Shown here: positions 178 through 44,133 of the stretch, piece after piece
Position numbering within the stretch: position 1 is the stretch's first letter
Layout of the letters: every line of letters begins with the position of its first letter
NCBI GenBank assembly: GCA_016214545.1
Contig: JACROH010000001.1
Location: 116,239 to 180,238 of the forward strand
DNA: 64,000 bases
DNA from: Candidatus Lloydbacteria bacterium
GTDB taxonomy: Bacteria > Patescibacteriota > Minisyncoccia > Phycocordibacterales > 21-14-all-47-15
Direction of reading: 5' to 3'
Made by a program: the position numbers and the translations under genes
The notes under the pieces: model-generated
What the model saw: the letters and a program-made list of their open reading frames with translations, nothing else
The model's database searches: none
What the model was told of the DNA's origin: nothing

Positions 178-2259
178 ATGTTTTCATTAAAAACGACTTC
201 ACGATTGGTGATAGGAATGCTCGTTGTTCAGATGCTCTATTCGTTTTTTCCTATCGGAGTTTTGGCTAGTACCGGAACTTTTAATTCTACCGCCGACGCC
301 TATCTCTCAAGCGGTTCGCCAAATGCCAACAACAGCACGGGCATCATTATGGACCTAATCAACACGAGAGATGGAGTCGTTCGCTTTGACACGAGCTCTA
401 TACCTTCGGGCTCGACGATTACTTCGGCAACGCTGACGTTGGTAGCGACCGCGGTCGGTAGCGCCACGTCGATTAAAAATTATGGGGCGCATCGCATATT
501 GGTTGATTGGACTGAAAGTACGGTTACCTGGAATACTCCCGGCAGTACGGCCGGGACCCATTTTGCGACTTCGCCGACGGATACGGTTGCCGTTTCTACC
601 GCCGGCTCATATAGCTGGAATGTGACGAGCGATGTGGCGAGTTTCATCGCCGGAAGCGCTACCAATTATGGCTGGCGTATTATTTGGTCTTCAAACACAA
701 GCGGCACCAATAAACAAGTTGATTTTGGAACAAAAGAAAATACTACGGCGTCTAATCGACCGGTTTTGAGCGTTACCTATACCACTCCCGACACTATCGC
801 GCCATCGGCGGTTTCAGACCTTGCCCTTTCGAGTCCTTCAAATTCTGCGATAACTGTTTCATGGACGGCTCCGGGAGATGATGCTTCCACCGGCACTGCG
901 GCGAGCTATGATTTACGCTATTCAACTTCTGCGATTACTTCCGGCAATTTCAGTTCAGCTACTGCGGTCACCGGTGAGCCAACGCCGTTAGTCGCTGGCA
1001 CTTCTCAATCAATGACGGTCACAGGTCTTTCTCCAAGCACCACCTACTATTTCGCCATCAAAACTTCCGATGAAGTTCCGAATACCTCGGCAATCTCAAA
1101 TGTTCCGAGCTTGGCAACGACGGCAACCCCCGACACTACCGCGCCATCGGCGGTTTCAGATCTGGCCGCGTCGGGCGCAACCGCGTCGTCAGTCCTTCTT
1201 TCGTGGACGGCTCCCGGTGATGACGCCTCCACCGGCACTGCGACAAGTTATGAAATCCGCTACTCCACAAGCAATATCACCGATGGAAATTATTCCGGAG
1301 CGACCCAGGTGAGTGGAGAGCCTGCGCCGCAAGCGGCGGGGGCCAGTCAATCAATGACGGTCACAGGTCTTTCTCCAAGCACTACCTACTATTTCGCTAT
1401 CAAAACTTCAGATGAGGTGCCGAATGCCTCGGCGATTTCGAATGTGCCGAGTTTGGCAACGACGGCAAGCGGCGGTGGGGGCGGCGGAGGAACAGAGACA
1501 TCAAGTTCGGGTGGTGCCGGGGCCGCCGTGTTGCCGACCAGGGTGGTCATTTCCGGGCAAGCATACCCGGGTGCAAAAGTGGATTTGCTCCGAAAAAGCA
1601 TTCAAGACGAGATATACCGAAATACGCCGGAAGCTATCTCAACCGTGTCCGCCGACGGCACTTTTTTCATACAGCTCACGGCGCTTCTCCAGGGGCAGTA
1701 TTTCTTTGCGCTTCGCATCGCAGATAAAGACGACAGAAAGACCGGCAACATCGCTTTTAACGTTGATTTGACGAGTGCAAATGAGCTTGTCGCGCGAGAT
1801 CTTTTTGTTCCGCCAACTATTGATTTTGAAACAGCTATCGTTCCGCTTGGAAAAGAAATAAAGGCACAAGGGTATGCCGCTCCCAAAAGCAGTGTTGTCG
1901 TCGAAATTGATGGTATACTGAAAGAGGAAGTGAAATCAGAAGAGGACGGCTTATGGTCTTTTGCGACAAGCACGGCGTCTTTCCGCATAGGGAATCATTA
2001 CGCGCGGGTAAAACAAACGGGCGCAAGCGGCAAAGAAAGCGAGTTCTCATCATCGCGCGCGTTTCGTGTCTCGCTTCTTGCTGTGCCAAAATCGGATTTA
2101 AATAATGACGACAAGATTACTATTGCCGATTGGAGCATCTTTCTTTTCAGGTGGGGCTCCAAAGATACGGCGTTAAGAAGTAAAATTGACATGAACAATG
2201 ACGGGAAAATTGACATTTCAGACTTGAGCATTTTTTTAAAAACGTTAAAGACGCTATAA
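178..2259 (+). CDS. Secreted multidomain surface protein: signal peptide, DNRLRE-like N-terminal domain, two tandem fibronectin-III-like repeats, Gly-rich linker, Ig-like region, C-terminal type-I dockerin
   Basis: 693-aa ORF with a hydrophobic N-terminus; two near-identical repeats (TTPDTIAPSAVSDLA...TTYYFAIKTSDEVPN). The C-terminus DLNNDDKITIADWSIF...DMNNDGKIDISDLSIF forms the duplicated Ca-binding dockerin motif. Confidence 0.85.
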   Translation: MFSLKTTSRLVIGMLVVQMLYSFFPIGVLASTGTFNSTADAYLSSGSPNANNSTGIIMDLINTRDGVVRFDTSSIPSGSTITSATLTLVATAVGSATSIKNYGAHRILVDWTESTVTWNTPGSTAGTHFATSPTDTVAVSTAGSYSWNVTSDVASFIAGSATNYGWRIIWSSNTSGTNKQVDFGTKENTTASNRPVLSVTYTTPDTIAPSAVSDLALSSPSNSAITVSWTAPGDDASTGTAASYDLRYSTSAITSGNFSSATAVTGEPTPLVAGTSQSMTVTGLSPSTTYYFAIKTSDEVPNTSAISNVPSLATTATPDTTAPSAVSDLAASGATASSVLLSWTAPGDDASTGTATSYEIRYSTSNITDGNYSGATQVSGEPAPQAAGASQSMTVTGLSPSTTYYFAIKTSDEVPNASAISNVPSLATTASGGGGGGGTETSSSGGAGAAVLPTRVVISGQAYPGAKVDLLRKSIQDEIYRNTPEAISTVSADGTFFIQLTALLQGQYFFALRIADKDDRKTGNIAFNVDLTSANELVARDLFVPPTIDFETAIVPLGKEIKAQGYAAPKSSVVVEIDGILKEEVKSEEDGLWSFATSTASFRIGNHYARVKQTGASGKESEFSSSRAFRVSLLAVPKSDLNNDDKITIADWSIFLFRWGSKDTALRSKIDMNNDGKIDISDLSIFLKTLKTL
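781..1470 (+). repeat. Internal tandem duplication (~345 bp x2, ~85% nt identity) encoding two FN3-like modules inside the dockerin protein gene
   Basis: Direct comparison of 781-1124 with 1125-1470: both carry acaggtctttctccaagcac(c/t)acctactatttcgc(c/t)atcaaaacttc and flanking similarity. Confidence 0.8.
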
Positions 2260-2263
2260 CCAT

Positions 2264-4024
2264 ATGGCAAAAAATTTTTTTACAGTATGTTTTTCACTCC
2301 TTGTCTTTTTCTGGTCGGCTTTTTCGGCAAATGCCGCCACTATTTCTCTTTTGCCGCAAGCGCGCGCTTTTGGCATCGGGCAGGAATTCAGCGTTGATAT
2401 AAAAATTGATACCGAAGAAGCATACATTAACGCAAGCCAGGCGACGGTGCGGTTTCCTGTTAGCGTGCTTGAGCTGGTAAGCGTTGATAAAACAAACTCT
2501 GCTTTTGGTTTTTGGGTTGAGGAGCCGAAAATCTCAAACGATGAAGGCACGCTCATGTTTACCGGCGGTACAACGAGCGGTGTTTCGGGCGGCTCTCTCC
2601 AGATTTTGAAATTGAAATTTAAAGCAAAAGGCACGGGACTCGCCGAGATTGCCCTGCAAGACGCGGCGATCACGGCTTCCGACGGCAAGGGAACGAACGT
2701 TCTCTCGGCACTCAAGGGGACGAGTGTTTCCGTGGGAACGCAAGTTGTTGTCCCGATTGCCCCTTCGGTTCCATCTTCTGTCAAACCATCTGCTCCCGCT
2801 GTCCCTGTCGCTCCGACTGTTGAACCGCAAAAAATAATCCGAGAGGCCGTTGTGGCGCAAAAATTGCCGGAGAAACCGCTGCTTCGGGTCCCGTTATATT
2901 CTGACGCAACCCGTTGGTACAATCACCAAGGAGAAGCGGCTGTCTTTTGGGATGTTCCATCGGACGCTATTGAGGCGGCCGTGGTCGTCGACCATAGCCC
3001 GTTAACGAAGCCGCAAAAGCCTGAACCAGAATTATTAACCGGCAAAAATCTCGGAGTTTTGAAAGAGGGAGAGTGGTATGTTCACGCGCGATTTAGGAAC
3101 AACATCGGATGGGGTGACACCGCGCACTTTAAGATTTCAATTGACGCAACGCCCCCACTGCCGTTTGAAATCAAAGATTCACTCACGAGCGATAATCCAA
3201 CCCCGGAAATAAAATACGAGGCGCACGACGCGCTCTCGGGGGTTTCTCACAATATTCTCTTTCTTGATGGTAAAGAATTCGTGAAAGGGACTACCACTTC
3301 TACCGTATTGCCACCGCTGTTGCCCGGTCCCCATATGGTACTGGTGCGGGTATTTGACTTGGCGGGCAACAGTGCCGAGAGCGATTTAAAATTTGAAATC
3401 TTGCCGCTTGCGACGCCAATCGTTGATTTTGTATCAAGTTCAATAATCCAGGGGGAGTCTCTGTATGCGTCGGGAAAATCAATTCCGAATGCATTTGTCG
3501 ATGTGCGTATAGTAGATAAGCGGCAGCGGGAAGTGATATCGGAGAGCGCAAAAAGTGATAATAGAGGCGATTGGAAAATTTCAATAAATGACCCCCTGCC
3601 AACCGGTACGTACACCATTTCTATCACGGCGCGCGATGAACGGGGAGCGAGGAGTTTCTCTGCGGATGTCGGGGCGCTCAAGGTGCATCCGAGAACCGTA
3701 TTATCATTGGGCGGAGTCGTCGACCTCGGCTGGTTTGAAATTCTCCTTATTTTGATACTCTTTATTACCTCGGCAACCGGACTCTTCGCATGGCAGTATG
3801 TTTCAAAAAATAAGACGCGCGAGGCATATAAAATGATTGTCGGCAGAGACGTCAATAAATTTGTAGACATGCTCGTTTCTTTTTTGAAAGAGTTTGAGAG
3901 CGCCGGAGATTTGAACGAAGACAGCCGTCGCGTAAAACAAAAAGCGCTCATAGAGCAGGCCAGAGAAACGGTTGCAAAAATGAAAAAATACATCGGCGAA
4001 GAAGTGAATAGACTGGGGAAGTAA
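2264..4024 (+). CDS. Membrane-anchored protein with N-terminal signal peptide and cohesin-like domain, C-terminal TM helix and cytoplasmic tail
   Basis: 586-aa ORF; N-terminal AATISLLPQARAFGIGQEFSVDIKIDT...LQILKLKFKAKGTGLAEIAL resembles type-I cohesin. Hydrophobic segment GWFEILLILILFITSATGLFAW near the C-terminus; start lies 5 bp after the dockerin gene stop. Confidence 0.8.
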   Translation: MAKNFFTVCFSLLVFFWSAFSANAATISLLPQARAFGIGQEFSVDIKIDTEEAYINASQATVRFPVSVLELVSVDKTNSAFGFWVEEPKISNDEGTLMFTGGTTSGVSGGSLQILKLKFKAKGTGLAEIALQDAAITASDGKGTNVLSALKGTSVSVGTQVVVPIAPSVPSSVKPSAPAVPVAPTVEPQKIIREAVVAQKLPEKPLLRVPLYSDATRWYNHQGEAAVFWDVPSDAIEAAVVVDHSPLTKPQKPEPELLTGKNLGVLKEGEWYVHARFRNNIGWGDTAHFKISIDATPPLPFEIKDSLTSDNPTPEIKYEAHDALSGVSHNILFLDGKEFVKGTTTSTVLPPLLPGPHMVLVRVFDLAGNSAESDLKFEILPLATPIVDFVSSSIIQGESLYASGKSIPNAFVDVRIVDKRQREVISESAKSDNRGDWKISINDPLPTGTYTISITARDERGARSFSADVGALKVHPRTVLSLGGVVDLGWFEILLILILFITSATGLFAWQYVSKNKTREAYKMIVGRDVNKFVDMLVSFLKEFESAGDLNEDSRRVKQKALIEQARETVAKMKKYIGEEVNRLGK

Positions 4025-6899: not shown

Positions 6900-9320
6900 A
6901 TGGTTATCTCACACAATTGGCTACAATCATTTTTTAAGGAAAAACTGCCGGTGCCGGAAAAAGTGGCGGAGCTTTTGACGATGCGCTCTTTTGAGGTGGA
7001 GTCGTTTGAAAAAAGGGGAGACGATACTATTTTTGAAATTGATATTTTGCCCAATCGCGCGCATGACTGCCTCTCGCATCGCGGTGTGGCGCGTGAACTT
7101 GCGGCTTTGCTTAGTTTGAAATTGGAGGATGGAGGAAAAAAATCCTCGTTTGAACTTGTGAAAGTACCCCGCGCGCTCTCGGTTCGCATTGAAGACGAAA
7201 AATTGTGCCGCCGATACGTCGGGCGGACGATTGAGAATGTGAAGGTCGTCCCTTCGCCGGACTGGCTTCGCCTACGGCTGGAATCTATCGGACAAAAATC
7301 AATCAACAACGTAGTAGACGCGACCAATTACGTGATGTTTCATCTGGGCCAGCCGATGCACGCGTTTGATGCGGATAAGCTTGCCTCTCCGGACATCATC
7401 GTGCGCAAAGCGCGTAATGGGGAGCGTATTACCACGCTTGATAAAAAAGAAGTGACACTTTCTTCCGATACGCTCGTTATTGCCGACACTGAAAGCGTGC
7501 TTGCCATCGCGGGCATCAAAGGAGGCACGAAAGCGGAAGTGGACGAGTCAACAAAAAATCTTATTTTGGAGGCGGCCAATTTTGAGCCCTCAAATATAAG
7601 ACGGACGGCGCAGAAAACGGGCATTCGTACCGATTCTTCAAAGCGGTTTGAACAGGGGATTGCTACAGAGCTTGCGCTTGAGGCGATGGAGCTCGCAACC
7701 GAGCTTGTCGTTCAAATAGCGGGCGGCAAAGAAACGCGTGAGGGCGGCATGATAGACCAATACCCGCGCCCGGGCGCACAATATAAAGTCGGTGTGTCGC
7801 TTGAGGAAATAAACTCGCTCTTGGGGCTCTCGCTTCGCGAAGAAGAAGTTGCGAGCATTCTTCTACGTCTCGGTTTTCAATACGAAATTCTTGACCCGAT
7901 AAAAAAAGTGCTTGAACTTGCACCGACATTTGCGGGCGCGCCATACAAACATGGCGCAAGTGTCGTCTATGATGCGCCGCGTGCGTTTGATTGCTCATCA
8001 TTTACCGCATATCTTTTCGCGCAGGCGGGGGTGGCGATTCCGCGCATGTCTGTTGACCAGTATGTGTTTGGAAAAGAAGTGTCGCTTGAAGAAATTACCG
8101 CGGGCGATTTAATATTCTCAAACACGCATGAGGGGACACAGCATGAAAAAAGCATTGATTTTTTTCCGGGAACACCGGTATCGGAACATATTGACCACGT
8201 CGGGCTTTTTCTTGGAGATGGCATGGTGATTCACGCATCGCGCCATAACGGCTCGGGCGAAGTGCTGAGCGAGAAGCTCAAAGAAAGCAAGGCGTTTACG
8301 CATATTGTCGGTGTGCGCCGTGTGTATGAGGGCAGCAAGCGTTTTGCCGTGACGGCACCCAACGAACGGCTTGATATCCGCATCGCGTATGACCTGATTG
8401 AAGAAATCGGGAGGGTGCACGGCTATGGCGATATTCCGGAAGCTCTGCCGGCCGTCTTGCAAAAAAATGAAATTGAATCGTGTATTTTTTATCAAAACGC
8501 CGTTCGTGAAATTTTGGCGGACGAAGGATTTTCTGAAATCTACACGTATACGTTTGTGGGCAAGCAAGACGGCGTAACACAGCCCGAGCTTGAAAATCCG
8601 CTCGCTGCTGATAAAGCCTTTTTGCGCGGAACGCTTGCGACCGAATTTTTTGAAAAATTTGAAACCAACGCCTACTATGCCGATTTGCTCGGCATTGATA
8701 CGGTGAAGATTTTTGAAATCGGCAGAGTATTCTCCGCCCAAGGCGGAGATGATGAGGCAGAGAAGGAAGTCTTGGGCATTGGAGTGAAACGGGTGAAGAA
8801 AAACAAAAAAGCCATGTCGGCGGAAGATGCGCTCTCGGAGGCGCTTGAAAAACTTTTTCTTGTGCTTGGCCTTAATGAGTCGCTCGTGCCGGCAGAAGCA
8901 ATTCAAATAAATAAAGAGAAGATGAGCGCATTTATAGAACTGCCGCTTGAAAAACTTTTTGCAAATGTTGATAGAAACATAATCCAAAAACTTTTTGATG
9001 AACGCCGGATGTTTGCTCCGTCGCCCGATGTTTCCTACCGACCGCTTTCAAAATATCCTTTTATCGCGCGTGATATTGCGGTGTTTGTGCCGGAATCAGT
9101 TGATGCGGGGGCGATTGCTTCGCTCATCAAAAATACGGCAGGAGAAAATCTTGTCCGGTATTGGCTTTTTGACACGTTTGAAAAAGACGGGAAAAAATCG
9201 TTCGCATTCCGATTGATATTCCAATCATACGAAAAAACGCTTTCAGACGAAGAAGTAAATGCGGTCATGTCCCGAGTGTCTAAAGCTTTTGAAGCAAACG
9301 ACGGGTGGAAAGTCAGATAA
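6900..9320 (+). CDS. pheT: Phenylalanine--tRNA ligase beta subunit with an NlpC/P60 (C40 peptidase) domain inserted into the B5 domain
   Basis: N-terminal, B3/B4 (IFEIDILPNRAHDCLSHRGVAREL; VVDATNYVMFHLGQPMHAFD) and B5 (LEEINSLLGLSLREEEVASILLRLGF) regions are collinear with PheT. Residues ~333-480 read YKHGASVVYDAPRAFDCSSF...IPRMSVDQ...GDLIFS...HVGLFLGDGMVIHAS, the NlpC/P60 signature. PheT resumes at VTAPNERLDIRIAYDLIEEIGRVHGYGDIP. Confidence 0.9.
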   Translation: MVISHNWLQSFFKEKLPVPEKVAELLTMRSFEVESFEKRGDDTIFEIDILPNRAHDCLSHRGVARELAALLSLKLEDGGKKSSFELVKVPRALSVRIEDEKLCRRYVGRTIENVKVVPSPDWLRLRLESIGQKSINNVVDATNYVMFHLGQPMHAFDADKLASPDIIVRKARNGERITTLDKKEVTLSSDTLVIADTESVLAIAGIKGGTKAEVDESTKNLILEAANFEPSNIRRTAQKTGIRTDSSKRFEQGIATELALEAMELATELVVQIAGGKETREGGMIDQYPRPGAQYKVGVSLEEINSLLGLSLREEEVASILLRLGFQYEILDPIKKVLELAPTFAGAPYKHGASVVYDAPRAFDCSSFTAYLFAQAGVAIPRMSVDQYVFGKEVSLEEITAGDLIFSNTHEGTQHEKSIDFFPGTPVSEHIDHVGLFLGDGMVIHASRHNGSGEVLSEKLKESKAFTHIVGVRRVYEGSKRFAVTAPNERLDIRIAYDLIEEIGRVHGYGDIPEALPAVLQKNEIESCIFYQNAVREILADEGFSEIYTYTFVGKQDGVTQPELENPLAADKAFLRGTLATEFFEKFETNAYYADLLGIDTVKIFEIGRVFSAQGGDDEAEKEVLGIGVKRVKKNKKAMSAEDALSEALEKLFLVLGLNESLVPAEAIQINKEKMSAFIELPLEKLFANVDRNIIQKLFDERRMFAPSPDVSYRPLSKYPFIARDIAVFVPESVDAGAIASLIKNTAGENLVRYWLFDTFEKDGKKSFAFRLIFQSYEKTLSDEEVNAVMSRVSKAFEANDGWKVR

Positions 9321-15845: not shown

Positions 15846-15886
15846 TTTGCTACATTTTCGGCCGTCAATCTGCTATACTTTTATTA

Positions 15887-17116
15887 ATGGATGCGTTTAT
15901 TCAAGAAACTCTTGCGAGAATCGTTGTCTCGTCTTTTCAAACAGCTCCGTATTGGCTTACGATAGTCCTCGGATTTGCTTTTTGGCAGATGTGGCTTTCG
16001 TATATTCACACGCGAAATATTGCCAACCTGCAGTGGACGATGCTTGAAATAAAGATACCGCGGGAGATTTCAAAATCTCCGCTCGCGATGGAGCTTGTGC
16101 TCAATGCACTGTATCAAAAAGGCTCAATTTCAAACCTCCTTCAAAAATATGTGCAGGGAAATCTGCGCCCGTGGTTTTCGCTTGAGCTCGTTTCTCTTGA
16201 GGGGAAAGTACATTTTTTTATCTATACTCAAAAATTTTTCAGCAAATTAATCGAAACACAAATTTATGCGCAATATCCGACCGTAGAAGTAACGAGCGCC
16301 GAAGACTATACGACAAAGATACCCTACGGGCATCCGGGCTCCGATTGGCAGATGTGGGGAGGGGAATTTACGCTCACCAAACCGGATCCGTATCCGATTA
16401 AAACGTATGTGGATTACGGACTGCACAAAGACCCGAAAGAAGAATTTAAAATCGACCCTATTACGCCGATACTTGAATATTTGGGTTCCATAGGCAAAGG
16501 AGAACAAATTTGGATTCAAATTATGGTGCGTCAGGCCGAAGAGCGTTTCAAGAAGCCGGGGACATGGTTTGAAAAGCGGGGGTGGAAAGATGAGGCAAAA
16601 GATTTGACCGCAAAATTATTGAAAGAAGCTGCAGAACGGACAAAGAAATTGACCGGCGCCGATAAACCGGGACCGATTATTCAGACAAAGGCCGACGAAG
16701 AGGTGATTTCCGCCATTGAGCGAAGCACGTCAAAATTCGGATTCGATTGCGGTATTCGGGGCGTGTATCTTGCGCGCGAAGGGGTATTCAATTCAGTGAA
16801 TGTGCCCGGCCTCGTTGGTTCGTTGCGTCAGTTTAACTCCGAGCACTTGAACGGTTTCAAGCCGGCGAGAACGACGAGCCTTGATTATCCGTGGCAAGAT
16901 ATAAAAAATTTAAGACTTGGCCGCATGAAAGCGCGCATGTTTGATGCGTATCGCCGGCGCAGTTATTTTTATCCTCCGTATGATCGGAAGCCGTTTATTC
17001 TTAATTCGGAAGAGCTCGCAACCATGTATCATTTCCCGGGCAAGGTTGCCGAGACGCCTTCTTTCACGCGCATCGAATCGCGCCGAGCCGAGCCGCCGCA
17101 AGACCTTCCTATATAG
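15887..17116 (+). CDS. Hypothetical protein with an N-terminal TM segment, unknown function
   Basis: 409-aa ORF; hydrophobic stretch YWLTIVLGFAFWQMWL; no recognisable catalytic motifs. Confidence 0.7.
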   Translation: MDAFIQETLARIVVSSFQTAPYWLTIVLGFAFWQMWLSYIHTRNIANLQWTMLEIKIPREISKSPLAMELVLNALYQKGSISNLLQKYVQGNLRPWFSLELVSLEGKVHFFIYTQKFFSKLIETQIYAQYPTVEVTSAEDYTTKIPYGHPGSDWQMWGGEFTLTKPDPYPIKTYVDYGLHKDPKEEFKIDPITPILEYLGSIGKGEQIWIQIMVRQAEERFKKPGTWFEKRGWKDEAKDLTAKLLKEAAERTKKLTGADKPGPIIQTKADEEVISAIERSTSKFGFDCGIRGVYLAREGVFNSVNVPGLVGSLRQFNSEHLNGFKPARTTSLDYPWQDIKNLRLGRMKARMFDAYRRRSYFYPPYDRKPFILNSEELATMYHFPGKVAETPSFTRIESRRAEPPQDLPI

Positions 17117-40212: not shown

Positions 40213-40218
40213 TTTTTT

Positions 40219-40289
40219 GCGGGTATAGTTTAGTGGCAGAATGGTTGCTTCCCAAGCAACAGATCGGAGTTCGATTCTCCGTACCCGCA
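40219..40289 (+). tRNA. tRNA-Gly (anticodon CCC)
   Basis: Cloverleaf folded by hand: acceptor GCGGGTA/TACCCGC, anticodon stem GTTGC/GCAAC with loop TTCCCAA, T-arm CGGAG-TTCGATT-CTCCG, discriminator A; no encoded CCA. Confidence 0.9.
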
Positions 40290-40309
40290 TCATGAGCCCT
40301 GCGAATGAG

Positions 40310-40467
40310 GTGGGTACAGCAAGCCAACTGCTTGGCTTGCGTGGAGAATCGAAAAGCGGAGCCATATTGCCAACAAGCAATGGCGAGCTGGGGTCGAGAG
40401 TACTTAGCAGATTTTGAGCGTAGCGAAGAAATCGCTTAGTAACTCGTGACCGATTCTCCGTACCCAC
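40310..40467 (+). other. tRNA-like element / degenerate tRNA-Gly paralog with a ~100-nt internal segment
   Basis: 5' GTGGGTA (40310-16) and 3' TACCCAC (40461-67) form a perfect 7-bp acceptor-like stem that differs from tRNA-Gly by a compensatory pair. 3' side repeats the tRNA-Gly T-loop (cgattctccgtaccc). Internal 7-bp hairpin gcaagcc/ggcttgc and a 9-bp long-range helix ggagaatcg/cgattctcc. No T-arm. Confidence 0.3.
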
Positions 40468-40601
40468 ATAAAAATAATAAAGAGTCAGGCGCGAAGAGGG
40501 AGCCGTTTATTGACATTTTAGTATCTTTACGTATAATATTTTTTAGGCTAGTTTAAAGTTTTTTATCTTTGTCATAAAATAAATAACTGAAAGGGAAAAT
40601 T

Positions 40602-40880
40602 ATGCCCACTCCTGTTTGGAAAGAGGGGTACGTTCCGCTTGAGAAAGGGGAATTGGTAGTCTTGATATGGCGGTGGGGACAGCCAAACAAAACGGAAGTT
40701 GACGCGGTCAGTGTATCCTCGGATGAGCTGCTCCATCATCCGTGCGGAGGGCGTCTCATCGTAAAGCCGGTGGAGAAAAATAAAGAACTCTCTTGTCAAA
40801 AATGTGGTTTTTGGACGGTCTTTCCGGAAGAAATAAAAACTCTGGGAGAACTCAAGAGTTTCCTTGCAAAAGAATCTTGA
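40602..40880 (+). CDS. Small zinc-ribbon-like protein, hypothetical
   Basis: 92 aa; HHPCGG...CQKCG pattern; RBS gaaaggga upstream; first gene after the tRNA-Gly region. Confidence 0.55.
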   Translation: MPTPVWKEGYVPLEKGELVVLIWRWGQPNKTEVDAVSVSSDELLHHPCGGRLIVKPVEKNKELSCQKCGFWTVFPEEIKTLGELKSFLAKES

Positions 40881-40923
40881 TTGCATAAAGTGTTTTTCCA
40901 AACGGTATTGAAAGGAGCGTACA

Positions 40924-41532
40924 ATGGAAGAAAGACAGAAAAAGATTATTTTTTTGAAAGGTAAAAAAGTTAATCTCCGTCCGTTGCGTAAAGCAACCGA
41001 CTTTGAATCGTGTCTTCGTTGGATTAACGATTGCGAAGTGAATCAGTATCTTGCTACCTATCTTCCAATGTCAGAACAAAAAGAGGAAGAATGGTTCGAT
41101 AAAACCTCAAAAAGCAGTGACAATATCGTTTTTGCGATTGAGGTTTCGGATGTCCTGAATGGCGGCATGCCTATCGGACTCATCGGGCTTCACAACATTA
41201 ATTGGAAAGACCGCACGGCTGTAACCGGAGCGGTAATCGGAGAAAAAGAATATTGGAATCAGGGTTATGGCACTGATGCCAAAATGTTGATCCTCGAGTA
41301 TGCCTTTAATACGCTCAATCTTCACAAGATTTGTTCCTCGGTAGTGGAGTTTAATAAGCGAAGTTTGCAGTACAATCTGCACTGTGGTTACAAACTTGAG
41401 GGAACAGAGCGCAAGCAGGTCTTCAAAAGAGGCAGATATTGGGATAAGTATATTTTGGGAGTGTTCAAAAACGATTGGCTACCGGTTTGGAGGACGTACC
41501 AAAAAACCGGAAAAGTAAAAGAAAAAATATAA
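40924..41532 (+). CDS. GNAT-family N-acetyltransferase (RimJ/RimL-like)
   Basis: VNLRPLRKATDFESCLRWINDCEVNQYL...GLIGLHNINWKDRTAVTGAVIGEKEYWNQGYGTDAKMLILEYAFNTLNLHKI matches the Acetyltransf_3 / RimL pattern. Confidence 0.85.
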   Translation: MEERQKKIIFLKGKKVNLRPLRKATDFESCLRWINDCEVNQYLATYLPMSEQKEEEWFDKTSKSSDNIVFAIEVSDVLNGGMPIGLIGLHNINWKDRTAVTGAVIGEKEYWNQGYGTDAKMLILEYAFNTLNLHKICSSVVEFNKRSLQYNLHCGYKLEGTERKQVFKRGRYWDKYILGVFKNDWLPVWRTYQKTGKVKEKI

Positions 41533-41534
41533 TC

Positions 41535-41653
41535 TTTTCAAAAAAGCCGCTACAATGTAGCGGCTTTTGTTTTTTTCTGGATTCATGCTATCGTACGGGA
41601 AGTTAAAAAAGAACATTGAAAAATCAAAGGAAAGGAGAAGGAAGATGAATATT
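41535..41653 (+). repeat. 119-bp module copy 1: terminator hairpin, promoter-like region, RBS, ATG AAT ATT
   Basis: ttttcaaaaaagccgctacaatgtagcggcttttgtttttttctggattcatgctatcgtacgggaagttaaaaaagaacattgaaaaatcaaaggaaaggagaaggaagatgaatatt; 100% identical to 42566-42684. Confidence 0.9.
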
Positions 41654-42502
41654 TTAGACTTAGATTGTCTGAAACGTTTACAGAATTGGGTAGCTGACAA
41701 CGAGCGCCGTATGCGCGGAGCGGGTCCTCGTTGGGAAATGTATAAAAGATTAGCTCGCGACCTGGTGGATAAAGGAGATTGGTTTTGGATTCCGCTTGAT
41801 AGCGGGACACAAATACCGCTTATTGATGCACTGCTCTACCTAGCAGAGATTTCTGACCGAAAATCGATTCCAAGATTAAAGAAACTTGTCAAAAGATATA
41901 CCGCCCCATCTCCAAACTCAAAAAACGAGGACGAGTGGCGAGCATGCCGAGGAGGTGGCTTTGTGAAGGCGCTCTATGGGCCAGCCGATGAGATACCCAA
42001 GGAGGTTCAAAGGCGGGCAATTGAATCGCTTCTCAGGTTACTTTCTCTCCCGGAAGCAAAGAAATATACAGAAGAGCTGTTTGACGAAATTGATATAGAA
42101 AGCTTAGACTGGAGAACCATAAAGACGCTAACGGGTTTCATCGAAAAAAATAAAATGGCGGAATTTTCCTCGAGGGTATTAAAATTAGGCAAAACCATGA
42201 AATTTATTTTTGATGGATGTTCCAAGTCGTTTAATAGTTTATATGGGTATGAAGAGTTAGTTTTTTGTGCCTTTAATATCTCGGAAGAGAACGCAGAAAA
42301 AAAAGAAGCGTGGTGGATTCTAATTGAAGAATATAATCATCCCGACGGTTATGATAAATACAAAAGATCACATGACAGGATCGATCTTATTTTGTGTGAA
42401 ATCGTGGACCGTGAACGCCGAGAAGGACAATCGAGAACAGAGCCTCTCCTTGATCAAAGACGTCTTGCGAAAGACATGCCTTATTACAGAAAACATTACT
42501 GA
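41645..42502 (+). CDS. Hypothetical protein A (285 aa), first gene driven by the duplicated module
   Basis: Starts MNILDLDCLKRLQNW at the module ATG; RBS aaggagaagg; ~42% GC; no recognisable domain. Confidence 0.7.
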   Translation: MNILDLDCLKRLQNWVADNERRMRGAGPRWEMYKRLARDLVDKGDWFWIPLDSGTQIPLIDALLYLAEISDRKSIPRLKKLVKRYTAPSPNSKNEDEWRACRGGGFVKALYGPADEIPKEVQRRAIESLLRLLSLPEAKKYTEELFDEIDIESLDWRTIKTLTGFIEKNKMAEFSSRVLKLGKTMKFIFDGCSKSFNSLYGYEELVFCAFNISEENAEKKEAWWILIEEYNHPDGYDKYKRSHDRIDLILCEIVDRERREGQSRTEPLLDQRRLAKDMPYYRKHY

Positions 42503-42565
42503 ATAAACTTCAAAAAACAGGAAAGGTGCCTGAAAAAAGATCCGTAATAAAGAAAGTTTTTTAAA

Positions 42566-42684
42566 TTTTCAAAAAAGCCGCTACAATGTAGCGGCTTTTG
42601 TTTTTTTCTGGATTCATGCTATCGTACGGGAAGTTAAAAAAGAACATTGAAAAATCAAAGGAAAGGAGAAGGAAGATGAATATT
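42566..42684 (+). repeat. 119-bp module copy 2 (identical to copy 1)
   Basis: Exact repeat 1,031 bp downstream of copy 1, again ending in ATG AAT ATT, which starts gene B. Confidence 0.9.
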
Positions 42685-42942
42685 ATTGGCGGATTTTTGT
42701 GTTCAGTTGGTCTGCATAAATTTGAAAAGGAACCGTCCCTGAAGGAGCCGATTAAAATGACGGGTGTGCACTTTGCCTTTTGGAGTGAGGCTGTTCAAAA
42801 AGGCGTCAAGAAGTGCTTAAGGGATGGTTGCGAAGCCACCAAGAAGGTATGGAGGCTAGGAATATATGGCCCCGGTGGCATGGCGAGTGAATGGGAGACA
42901 CTTGATGAAAAGAAAGAGAGGAAGAAAGATGAGTCCTATTGA
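42676..42942 (+). CDS. Hypothetical small protein B (88 aa)
   Basis: Starts MNIIGGFLCSVGLHKF at the module ATG; Cys/His scattered; KK/E-rich tail. Confidence 0.55.
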   Translation: MNIIGGFLCSVGLHKFEKEPSLKEPIKMTGVHFAFWSEAVQKGVKKCLRDGCEATKKVWRLGIYGPGGMASEWETLDEKKERKKDESY

Positions 42943-43189
42943 AAAAGGACCTACAGTAGTTACCATGCAATTTGATTGGGCGAATCACAGACACATTTTA
43001 GAAATGACCACATGCCGTGGGTCTGATCATTATTCTGGCGATAGAGAAGGGGAGGTGTGCTCGCTATGCCAGGAAGCCGCGAATCAGTCAGGAATTCCCC
43101 ACAAGGAACATTTCAAACATCCCCGTGACTGCAAATGTTTCCAGTGTGTGTTTTGTAAATGTTCAAAAGTCAACGAGCGCGATAAATAA
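42929..43189 (+). CDS. Hypothetical Cys-rich small protein C (86 aa), translationally coupled to B
   Basis: ATG 42929 overlaps the end of B by 14 nt; CRGSDHYSGDREGEVCSLCQ and HPRDCKCFQCVFCKC clusters suggest metal binding. Confidence 0.45.
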   Translation: MSPIEKGPTVVTMQFDWANHRHILEMTTCRGSDHYSGDREGEVCSLCQEAANQSGIPHKEHFKHPRDCKCFQCVFCKCSKVNERDK

Positions 43190-43205: not shown

Positions 43206-43246
43206 TTTTCAAAAAAGCCGCTACATTGTAGCGGCTTTTGTTTTTT
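43206..43246 (+). terminator. Third copy of the module hairpin only (1 mismatch); bidirectional terminator for gene C and the convergent dCMP deaminase gene
   Basis: ttttcaaaaaagccgctacattgtagcggcttttgtttttt. Confidence 0.8.
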
Positions 43247-43254
43247 ATTCTTCC

Positions 43255-43755
43255 TCACGTCATATTATTTTTTTGGTAACGAGTTTCTGTCGCCATGCCC
43301 GTAATTTTGTCAAATTGAATGTTGCTTATTCCCAACGTTTCGGTAACCAGGCGGCACCCATCGCACGCCCAATAGTGCCCGACGAGACAGAGTGTTGCTC
43401 CCGCAAGGGTTGCCCGCTCTTCCTTTGTAAATGCCTGAAGAACCTCATCTTTTGAGGGCCGAAGGTGACTCGCGAATACCGCCAATTCTTCCGGTTTTCG
43501 ATTTGGTCTGATGTTGAGACACGCCATTACCTCTGCGTGTAATGGCTGGCACAATTCATAATTGGTTCCGGTTTTGACGGTTATTCTCGGGCATACCGAT
43601 ACCGACTCGCCGTGAGAAAGCCCCAGAGGAGCGCATAGATTGCAGCCAGTGGAGAGTATCTCATTATTTTTGACAATAATGGCGCCCGTTTTTGTTTTTA
43701 AACAGGTGGAATGCTTGCTAAACCGACTTGCTATCTCAAAGAACCTTTTAGACAT
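43255..43755 (-). CDS. dCMP deaminase (ComEB-like cytidine/deoxycytidylate deaminase fold)
   Basis: MSKRFFEIASRFSKHSTCLKTKTGAIIVKNNEILSTGCN...PLHAEVMA...ACDGC: H(A)E and CxxC zinc-binding motifs. Confidence 0.85.
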   Translation of the reverse strand: MSKRFFEIASRFSKHSTCLKTKTGAIIVKNNEILSTGCNLCAPLGLSHGESVSVCPRITVKTGTNYELCQPLHAEVMACLNIRPNRKPEELAVFASHLRPSKDEVLQAFTKEERATLAGATLCLVGHYWACDGCRLVTETLGISNIQFDKITGMATETRYQKNNMT

Positions 43756-43827
43756 AGTGCTTCCTCCAAAATAGAGATTTCTATTTTTATGCTATACTAT
43801 GTATATCATATTTAACAATTAATCATA

Positions 43828-44070
43828 TTGCCTTATATGAAAAACGTATCAATTTACACGACGCCGACCTGCGGATATTGCCGAATGGCGAAAGATTTTT
43901 TTAAAGAGCATAATATTGCCTATATTGAATATGACGTCGCGGCCGATACGGAGAAACGCAAAGAAATGATAGACAAGAGCGGACAAATGGGGGTGCCGGT
44001 CATGTTTATCGGAAAGGACATGATCATCGGTTTCAATGAAGAAAAAATAAAATCGGCGTTGGGGATATAA
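43828..44070 (+). CDS. Glutaredoxin/NrdH-like redoxin
   Basis: VSIYTTPTCGYCRMAKDFFKEHNIAYIEYDV...GQMGVPVMFIG with CGYC active site. Confidence 0.8.
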   Translation: MPYMKNVSIYTTPTCGYCRMAKDFFKEHNIAYIEYDVAADTEKRKEMIDKSGQMGVPVMFIGKDMIIGFNEEKIKSALGI

Positions 44071-44133
44071 TCAGTACAACAAAAAACTCGCCAAGAAATG
44101 GCGAGTTTTTTGTTTCATCATGCTTTATTGTTA

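Follow-up and report, generated by a model that had tools for sequence, protein, structure and literature searches.

A perfectly repeated terminator-promoter module in front of unrelated genes in a variable slot beside tRNA-Gly of a Candidatus Lloydbacteria genome

Analysis of a 64-kb window of a Candidatus Lloydbacteria genome (contig JACROH010000001.1, positions 116,239 to 180,238; the window is this whole stretch, and coordinates below count from its first letter) revealed a 119-nt repeat, here designated R, which is composed of a terminator hairpin (T) and a promoter/leader part (P) and which heads, in two identical copies, gene A and the overlapping genes B and C. These genes lie in a slot between tRNA-Gly and a glutaredoxin gene, and the arrangement probably represents stacked expression cassettes in a slot resembling those of minimal mobile elements, very recently duplicated by homologous recombination or gene conversion. 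The duplication of R looks like the outcome of ordinary recombination and not like a new class of mobile element.

Direct comparison of positions 41535-41653 with 42566-42684 gave identity at 119 of 119 nt, as the first-pass annotation had stated, and the edges of the repeat are sharp, with no further matching base on the left or on the right; the two copies start 1031 bp apart. Repeat finding and a mismatch-tolerant search also confirmed the third copy of the hairpin alone at 43206-43246, which matches at 40 of 41 nt, the sole change being at the central loop base, with ATT in place of AAT. None of 100 shuffled versions of the window contained the hairpin pattern, and apart from R the 64 kb have just two exact repeats of at least 20 nt, both short and both in a repeat-protein gene at about 800-1350. 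Given the exact identity, the empty shuffles and the scarcity of other repeats, the duplication of R is real and far beyond chance. The first copy leads into the ATG of gene A at 41645 (41645-42502, plus strand, 285 aa) and the second into that of gene B at 42676 (42676-42942, plus strand, 88 aa). The description of R as placed in front of two genes held in this respect, although the unit downstream of the second copy consists of two overlapping open reading frames (ORFs), since B is followed by gene C (42929-43189, plus strand), which encodes a Cys-rich protein of 86 aa, overlaps B by 14 nt, has an RBS-like sequence of its own (GAGAGGAAG; RBS, ribosome-binding site) and is missing from the GenBank annotation.

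Regarding the hairpin part, T1 (41535-41575) and T2 (42566-42606) are identical, and T3 (43206-43246) is the copy with the loop mismatch. The layout of T is TTTTC, six A residues, GCCGCTAC, AAT, GTAGCGGC and TTTTGTTTTTT, giving a GC-rich stem of 8 bp that A:U pairs extend to 12 pairs, closed by a 3-nt loop. Predicted folding energies were -18.1 kcal/mol on the plus strand (z=-5.2) and -17.6 kcal/mol on the minus strand (z=-4.5), the hairpin on the reverse strand is followed by TTTTTTG, and all three copies were detected by a terminator scan. A GC-rich stem-loop directly followed by a U-run is what defines a Rho-independent terminator, and since T-runs follow the hairpin on both strands, T is predicted to be a bidirectional intrinsic terminator. 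T1 would end transcription of the upstream GNAT N-acetyltransferase gene and T2 that of gene A, while T3 would end transcription of B-C on the plus strand and of a deaminase gene on the minus strand.

The promoter/leader part extends over 41576-41644 (P1) and, with identical sequence, over 42607-42675 (P2), both on the plus strand. A putative extended -10 element, TGCTATCGT, is located at 41586-41594 in P1 (42617-42625 in P2), approximately 10 nt past T and 51 nt before the ATG, and no clear -35 element was found in P. This element is a slightly degenerate copy of a TGCTATAnT motif of the window, and at the motif level it has the features of a sigma-70 extended -10 promoter, namely TGn, a TATAAT-like hexamer, a suitable distance to the start codon and a match to the organism's own promoters. 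It is followed by a purine-rich leader of about 45 nt without significant fold (z=+1.05), which includes the 16-mer AAAAAGAACATTGAAA at 41606-41621, and by the Shine-Dalgarno sequence AAGGAGAAGG at 41632-41641 (42663-42672 in P2), whose GGAG stands 7 nt before the ATG at 41645. The last 9 nt of R (41645-41653 in copy 1) read ATG AAT ATT and form the first three codons of both A and B. The anatomy proposed in the first-pass annotation was borne out, the terminator hairpin with its T-run by folding energy and terminator scan, and the promoter, RBS and first three codons by motif match, the 51-nt spacing and the Shine-Dalgarno sequence. When Rfam was run on the slot and four related loci, only tRNAs reached the threshold; sub-threshold leader and small RNA matches on R were caused by the terminator hairpin and were rejected.

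Sites of the form TGCTATA[ACG]T were present in the window at 15871, 32984 (minus strand), 39792, 43790, 44235 (minus strand) and 56046 (minus strand), and TGCTATAnT stands directly upstream of DivIC, glutaredoxin, the gene at 15887, tRNA-Arg, tRNA-Ser and others. It appears to be the extended -10 promoter consensus of this organism, which would be usable for genome-wide promoter mapping.

If these elements act as predicted, the T of each copy of R would insulate the upstream unit while P drives the next gene, so that GNAT, A and B-C would form three consecutive, mutually insulated units, of which A and B-C would receive identical transcription and translation-initiation signals from R. T3 would close the array and also terminate the convergent deaminase gene. 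On this layout, transcripts would be expected to start at about 41600-41603 and 42631-42634 and to end at 41570-41576, 42601-42607 and 43241-43247 on the plus strand and at about 43206-43212 on the minus strand.

The genes headed by the two copies of R are unrelated to each other, as had been proposed: no BLASTP alignment of A with B, A with C or B with C was better than E=2.7, and the paralogy expected of a tandem gene duplication was not found among the three. None of A, B, C and orf92, a further small gene of the slot, had a match in Pfam, PHROG, PADLOC or NCBIfam. For B and C, no relative was found in these family libraries or in 16 related loci, a search for distant homologues not having been made. 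Gene A found only itself in a word-indexed set of 5.8 billion proteins, and a HMMER search of 1.84 billion cluster representatives recovered 35 distant relatives, all unannotated and of at most 44% identity; no relatives were found in viral contigs. Some members of this family are embedded in proteins of 400-1345 aa, and the family has the conserved N-terminal motif NW..D..RR..G.GP.W.MYK.LAR.LVD...IPL.SGMQ.PL.DAI.YL..I.DR.SIPRLK.L. With an alignment, AF2 modelled the product of gene A as an all-alpha helical-repeat fold (pLDDT 87.6; 41 from the single sequence), and Foldseek comparison of the model with PDB and BFVD gave just generic helical-repeat matches (E>0.1), while a profile search against PDB sequences gave nothing. 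The model suggests that the product of gene A, a member of a rare family, is a helical-repeat protein. Codon adaptation of A, B and C is below that of core genes, as is the GC content at third codon positions (GC3) of A and C, B being the exception, and the slot as a whole is GC-poor relative to its flanks.

Regarding the genomic setting, 16 related loci from about ten related lineages were fetched via relatives of the GNAT and glutaredoxin genes. The flanks are syntenic, with TPR-MurJ-LepA-DivIC-tRNA-Gly on the left and glutaredoxin-88aa-...-HSP20-PrsW-ValRS on the right; BLASTN placed the conserved borders at 40290 and 43781, and DivIC and tRNA-Gly align with all relatives. The left border is tRNA-Gly(CCC) at 40218-40291 (plus strand; ARAGORN, Rfam) and the right border is the glutaredoxin promoter and gene at 43781-44070 (plus strand), with TGCTATACT at 43790-43798 and the ATG at 43837. 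Between them, the window contains orf92, GNAT, A, B, C and the deaminase gene. The GNAT gene (40924-41532, plus strand; Pfam Acetyltransf_3, E=1.5e-23) has a stop codon ending 2 nt before the first copy of R and encodes a protein identical to MBI5004716.1 from a Candidatus Lloydbacteria metagenome-assembled genome (MAG), and the cytidine/dCMP-deaminase-like gene (43255-43755, minus strand; Pfam dCMP_cyt_deam_1) is convergent with B-C, its stop codon lying 8 nt past T3.

The content of this slot changes in almost every related lineage. Loci L010 and L011 have cdd and GNAT, L012 has GNAT and an uncalled ORF X encoding a 115-aa membrane protein, L013 has GNAT only, L014-L016 have MscS, L017 has the deaminase gene only, L040 has approximately 3 kb of small ORFans, L041 has two small ORFs and L047 has one ORF of 127 aa. 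Relatives of A, B, C and orf92 were absent from all 16 loci. The slot shows conserved flanks with alternative, unrelated content, which is the pattern of a hotspot of the minimal-mobile-element type. At the right end of their slots, L010/11, L012, L017, L040 and L041-44/46 each have one copy of T, to which T3 of the window is orthologous; in L017, where T stands between tRNA-Gly and the deaminase gene, it is identical to the T of R at 37 of 37 nt.

The comparison with L010 indicates where the additional units were gained. The GNAT-T segment of L010 aligns with window positions 40908-41577, while the same T with about 55 nt beyond it aligns with 43206-43302, that is, with T3 and the 3' end of the deaminase gene. 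Since a single T in L010 aligns on its left with T1 and GNAT and on its right with T3 and the deaminase end, the window has an insertion of 1671 bp relative to L010, made up of a P-A-T unit of 1031 bp and a P-BC-T unit of 640 bp and flanked by direct repeats of T, and L010, with its order GNAT-T-deaminase remnant, is read from this alignment as the empty site. The remnant of about 55 nt stands beside T at 10650-10715 of L010, the remainder of the deaminase gene having been deleted up to the glutaredoxin promoter, and shows that the slot undergoes gene loss as well as gain.

A homolog of P was detected in L012 at 7508-7570 (77.6% identity over 67 nt), where it follows GNAT and a different terminator and precedes ORF X, which is unrelated to A, B and C and is itself followed by T. 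Conserved parts include TGnTAnnGT, GTACGGG, the 16-mer of the leader, AAAGGAGAA and GATGAA, and the -10 positions kept are TG, T1, A2 and T6. Across two lineages, then, three cargos unrelated to one another are framed by the same modules on their 5' and 3' sides. The suggestion that the module follows a cassette-like logic was supported in part by this homolog heading a third unrelated gene and by the empty site in L010, but the scaffold was found bound to this one locus.

GNAT orthologs in L010, L012 and L013 share 78-84% identity, and the deaminase ortholog in L017 shares 82% aa identity. Regarding the age of the duplication, the closest relatives diverge by 8-22% at orthologous sites. Set against this divergence, the identity of the two copies at 119 of 119 nt indicates that the last duplication or conversion was very recent, in agreement with the first-pass annotation. 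A sharp-edged perfect repeat fits a crossover through R or at T, and gene conversion would look the same. Units of P, cargo and T that have P and T in common may be exchanged and stacked by RecA-type homologous recombination, either by unequal crossover at T between variants with different cargo or by the uptake of DNA and a single crossover through R that inserts a circularised unit in the Campbell fashion; alternatively, the two copies of R may have been homogenised by gene conversion. Patescibacteria commonly carry genes of competence and homologous recombination and many genomic islands (PMC12455944), and in Saccharibacteria linear cassettes have been integrated by natural transformation and homologous recombination (PMC10633639); by analogy, uptake by homologous recombination is plausible in this group. 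The joining of unrelated coding sequences to P at codon 3 would most likely be due to illegitimate recombination combined with selection for in-frame, expressed fusions.

Several points weigh against stacked, recently duplicated cassettes. P is common to only three cargo units in two lineages, which is a small sample, and the available homology is short for recombination (41 nt for T and 78 nt for P). There is no variant with A only or B-C only among the related loci. How the cargo genes were fused to P at codon 3 is not accounted for by homologous recombination alone. The promoter, the start of transcription and its termination are predicted from motifs, the search for further copies and for a recombinase covered the 64-kb window of a contig of 270,910 bp, and the copy number of the 1031-bp unit is not fixed by a k=31 assembly.

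Alternatively, the duplication may be an older one, in which the two promoter modules have stood side by side for a long time and conversion of the tract between the non-homologous flanks has erased differences from time to time, or selection has kept the copies the same. The identity of the two copies would then be silent on when A or B-C arrived. The identity stops on both sides exactly where homology stops, as it would for a conversion tract, T3, to which no P is attached, has diverged at one base, and the slot of L040 keeps older, diverged repeats (74-83% identity) between its cargo ORFs, which implies that intergenic repeats can persist. We nevertheless consider this unlikely, as the absence of A, B and C from every related locus and the empty site in the closest relative both favour a recent arrival, a tract of 119 nt is short for efficient conversion, and no mosaic positions, as would be left by partial conversion, are present.

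The L040 array is, as read from its repeats, a second and older example of repeat-punctuated cargo in the slot. Over 1140-3730 of that locus, a different intergenic module stands between its small ORFans in four diverged copies (74-83%); this module contains GGTTCTAAC, often in or beside a short hairpin, and precedes a promoter-like site; the motif is also found in L047 at 41-50. An integron reading of GGTTCTAAC was discarded, the sequence being one base off RYYYAAC and absent from the window. A weak resemblance to P in L040 (E=0.5; 64% over 70 nt) was also rejected as homology, as only a generic -10 element, CATGCTATC, and a Shine-Dalgarno sequence are in common and the internal blocks are not collinear.

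The first-pass annotation had also raised the possibility of a portable expression cassette with integron-like logic, and neither part of this idea was supported. Beyond the clustered copies, the 64-kb window gave no additional match to R, to T or to the 16-mer of P. When GTDB genomes, one for each species and evidently not including the source genome, were scanned for the hairpin, six matches resulted, all of them single terminators in Flavobacteria, Clostridia or Filimonas. Searches for the P-leader pattern gave 19 matches in JGI metagenomes and three in IMG/VR, which are regarded as chance matches since they have no flank, ATG spacing or neighbouring gene in common with R. In line with the observation that the window has no obvious integrase, a Pfam scan of about 48 of its ORFs detected housekeeping genes and RecR and no integrase, resolvase, transposase or other recombinase domain; nor were mobility genes seen in the slot or among these ORFs. 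An integron has IntI and attI beside its array, and neither was found in this set. R has no GTTRRRY or RYYYAAC core sites, and unlike attC its palindrome forms a perfect, bulge-free stem; a promoter and an RBS accompany every unit, whereas integron cassettes are promoterless. When the ends of R were compared with their reverse complement, only 6-7 of 29 positions matched; a reading of R as a miniature inverted-repeat transposable element (MITE) was ruled out by this lack of terminal inverted repeats, and with three clustered copies in 64 kb it does not behave as a MITE- or REP-like dispersed repeat (REP, repetitive extragenic palindrome).

In a broader and speculative form, bacteria of the candidate phyla radiation (CPR), Lloydbacteria among them, might possess an integrase-independent cassette platform beside tRNA-Gly, in which self-contained units of P, cargo and T are captured, swapped and stacked by way of the ends that they have in common and in which the terminator palindrome doubles as a recombination site used by RecA or an unrecognised hairpin-specific enzyme. 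This is a decidedly long shot; if true, such a pre-wired expression slot would let genome-reduced epibionts sample foreign ORFan genes. Slightly less probable again is a site-specific platform in which T or R is the site of a recombinase encoded elsewhere, integron-like or of the hairpin-recognising HUH/Y1 type, that inserts and excises units of P, cargo and T. Such a system would account for the same palindrome ending every unit, for an array bounded by its direct repeats, for the same 5' and 3' modules around unrelated cargo in two lineages, for a hypervariable slot that adjoins a tRNA gene with a duplicated 3'-end scar and for the L040 slot, which is likewise an array of cargo ORFs parted by a repeated module. 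Against it stand the lack of any recombinase domain in the ORFs scanned, a T that is a perfect-stem terminator without attC bulges, an R without core sites or terminal inverted repeats, the lack of copies outside the locus in the window or the scanned public collections, cassettes that have their own promoter, and a T that is single-copy in relatives.

The tRNA scar is a second copy of 19 nt from the tRNA-Gly 3' end, CGATTCTCCGTACCCACAT, at 40451-40469 (plus strand; 18/19 nt), outside R; it is also present in L010 at 9076-9098. It is possibly an old attachment-site remnant of an integrative element of which no integrase is left, and the combination of direct repeats of a tRNA 3' end with an integrase, typical of a tRNA-linked integrative island, was not found. 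Since the duplicate lies only 160 nt downstream of tRNA-Gly, A, B and C are outside the interval that it delimits. A perfect consensus sigma-70 promoter (TTGACA, 16 nt, TATAAT; 12/12 positions) is located at 40510-40537, upstream of orf92 (40602-40880), a 92-aa CxxC ORFan, and of GNAT, and this block of promoter, orf92 and GNAT is absent from L017.

An assembly artefact, in which two strain variants were placed in series or in which the 1031-bp loop of R and A was miscounted, as from a tandem array or an extrachromosomal circle, is also very improbable. The source is a genome assembled from a groundwater metagenome, and in a k=31 graph the copies of R collapse into one node that has two ways in and two ways out, with A as a loop on it. 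The first-pass annotation had named such an artefact as a possible undoing of the repeat, and the point was examined in an independent k=31 assembly, the Logan contigs of run SRR12113407. A Logan contig of 972 nt is identical to window positions 41624-42595 and comprises gene A flanked at both ends by exactly 30 nt of R, and a second contig starts 30 nt before the end of R and runs into B-C-T3-deaminase-glutaredoxin. Both A/R junctions and the R/B junction are therefore present in the reads, and contig breaks 30 nt inside R on both sides of A are what is expected of a true repeat in a k=31 graph. At least one set of R-A-R or A-R circle junctions is real, while the number of traversals of the R-A loop is not fixed by these contigs. 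In addition, the GenBank contig of 270,910 bp crosses the region (locus tags HZC04_00815-00835), a repeat of 119 nt should normally be resolvable, since Illumina reads are typically longer, as are the large k values used by common metagenome assemblers, and a circle of 1 kb would be without a replication function.

In the GenBank annotation, generated by the Prokaryotic Genome Annotation Pipeline (PGAP), translation starts 20 codons further upstream and inside R, at ATG 41585 for A (305 aa) and ATG 42616 for B (108 aa), and R would then encode a common 23-residue N-terminus, MLSYGKLKKNIEKSKERRRKMNI, on two different proteins. Although the frame is open from 41585 to 41645 and PGAP picked this ATG, a shared N-terminal peptide is the least credible of these explanations, as 20 stop-free codons are expected by chance in about 38% of cases, no Shine-Dalgarno sequence precedes 41585 whereas AAGGAGAAGG precedes 41645, the proposed -10 element overlaps the upstream ATG, the matching upstream frame in L012 has a stop and is shifted by indels, and homologs of A have nothing like the extension; on the last four grounds the starts at 41645 and 42676 were adopted, and the PGAP starts of A and B are judged to be 20 codons too far upstream.

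Among known systems, stacked cassettes of this kind have their closest counterpart in the minimal mobile elements of Neisseria (Saunders and Snyder, 2002), which are outlined in PMC1797815 as clusters of one to three genes that vary between strains at sites between conserved genes, that have no mobility genes and whose exchange is attributed to transformation and homologous recombination. Like the elements so outlined, the interval from tRNA-Gly to glutaredoxin varies at a syntenic site, here across about ten Lloydbacteria lineages. In contrast to that outline, the homology may here include P and T inside the slot, so that cargo would be swapped or stacked as ready-made units; there are two stacked units with a perfect 119-nt repeat; and the host is an uncultured CPR bacterium in which exchange is inferred.

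Chromosomal integrons of Vibrio contain repeats of about 120 nt, the Vibrio cholerae repeats (VCR). The array described here is similar to integron arrays in having tandem unrelated ORFs, a palindromic repeat of similar length after each and cargo that consists mostly of ORFans. It differs from them in that no IntI or attI was found among the scanned ORFs of the window, R has neither core sites nor a bulged hairpin, each unit has its own promoter, RBS and the same first three codons, and the palindrome is a canonical terminator. As in Campbell-type integration or unequal crossover, the insert stands between identical direct repeats as long as the homology, and the sharp-edged R-A-R arrangement fits this, although the homology amounts to just 41-119 nt; the donor might have been a circle, a sister chromosome or a population variant. 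Correia elements, REP sequences and bacterial interspersed mosaic elements (BIME) and other MITEs are short intergenic repeats able to supply terminators or promoters; they occur in tens to hundreds of dispersed copies, those of MITEs being bordered by terminal inverted repeats and flanked by target-site duplications. None of these features is seen in R, which is confined to one locus and runs in frame into coding sequence.

If the stacked-cassette reading is true, the locus would be a base-pair-level record of accessory-gene turnover in an ultrasmall, host-dependent bacterium, in which a fixed slot, a conserved terminator landmark and a reusable promoter/leader take up unrelated ORFans as ready-to-express units. 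R would also be a natural, compact terminator-promoter-RBS module, and the slot a probable neutral integration site for Parcubacteria, a lineage without genetic tools; such parts were hand-picked for the engineering of Saccharibacteria (PMC10633639).

Elsewhere in the window, a perfect 16-nt inverted repeat (AACAAAAAACTCGCCA and TGGCGAGTTTTTTGTT, 5 nt apart) at 44078-44114, between glutaredoxin and the convergent tRNA-Arg, is predicted to be a further terminator acting in both directions, whose sequence is not related to that of T. In the phenylalanyl-tRNA synthetase beta chain (6900-9320, 806 aa), an NlpC/P60 peptidase domain is inserted between B3_4 and B5 (Pfam E=1.4e-18, residues 346-415), and such a fusion is unusual in a core enzyme of translation. 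The gene of a 693-aa protein with fn3, CBM96 and purple-acid-phosphatase-N domains (178-2259) contains, at 798-1383, exact repeats (21 and 36 nt; period 342 bp), which are internal domain repeats of a probable surface protein.

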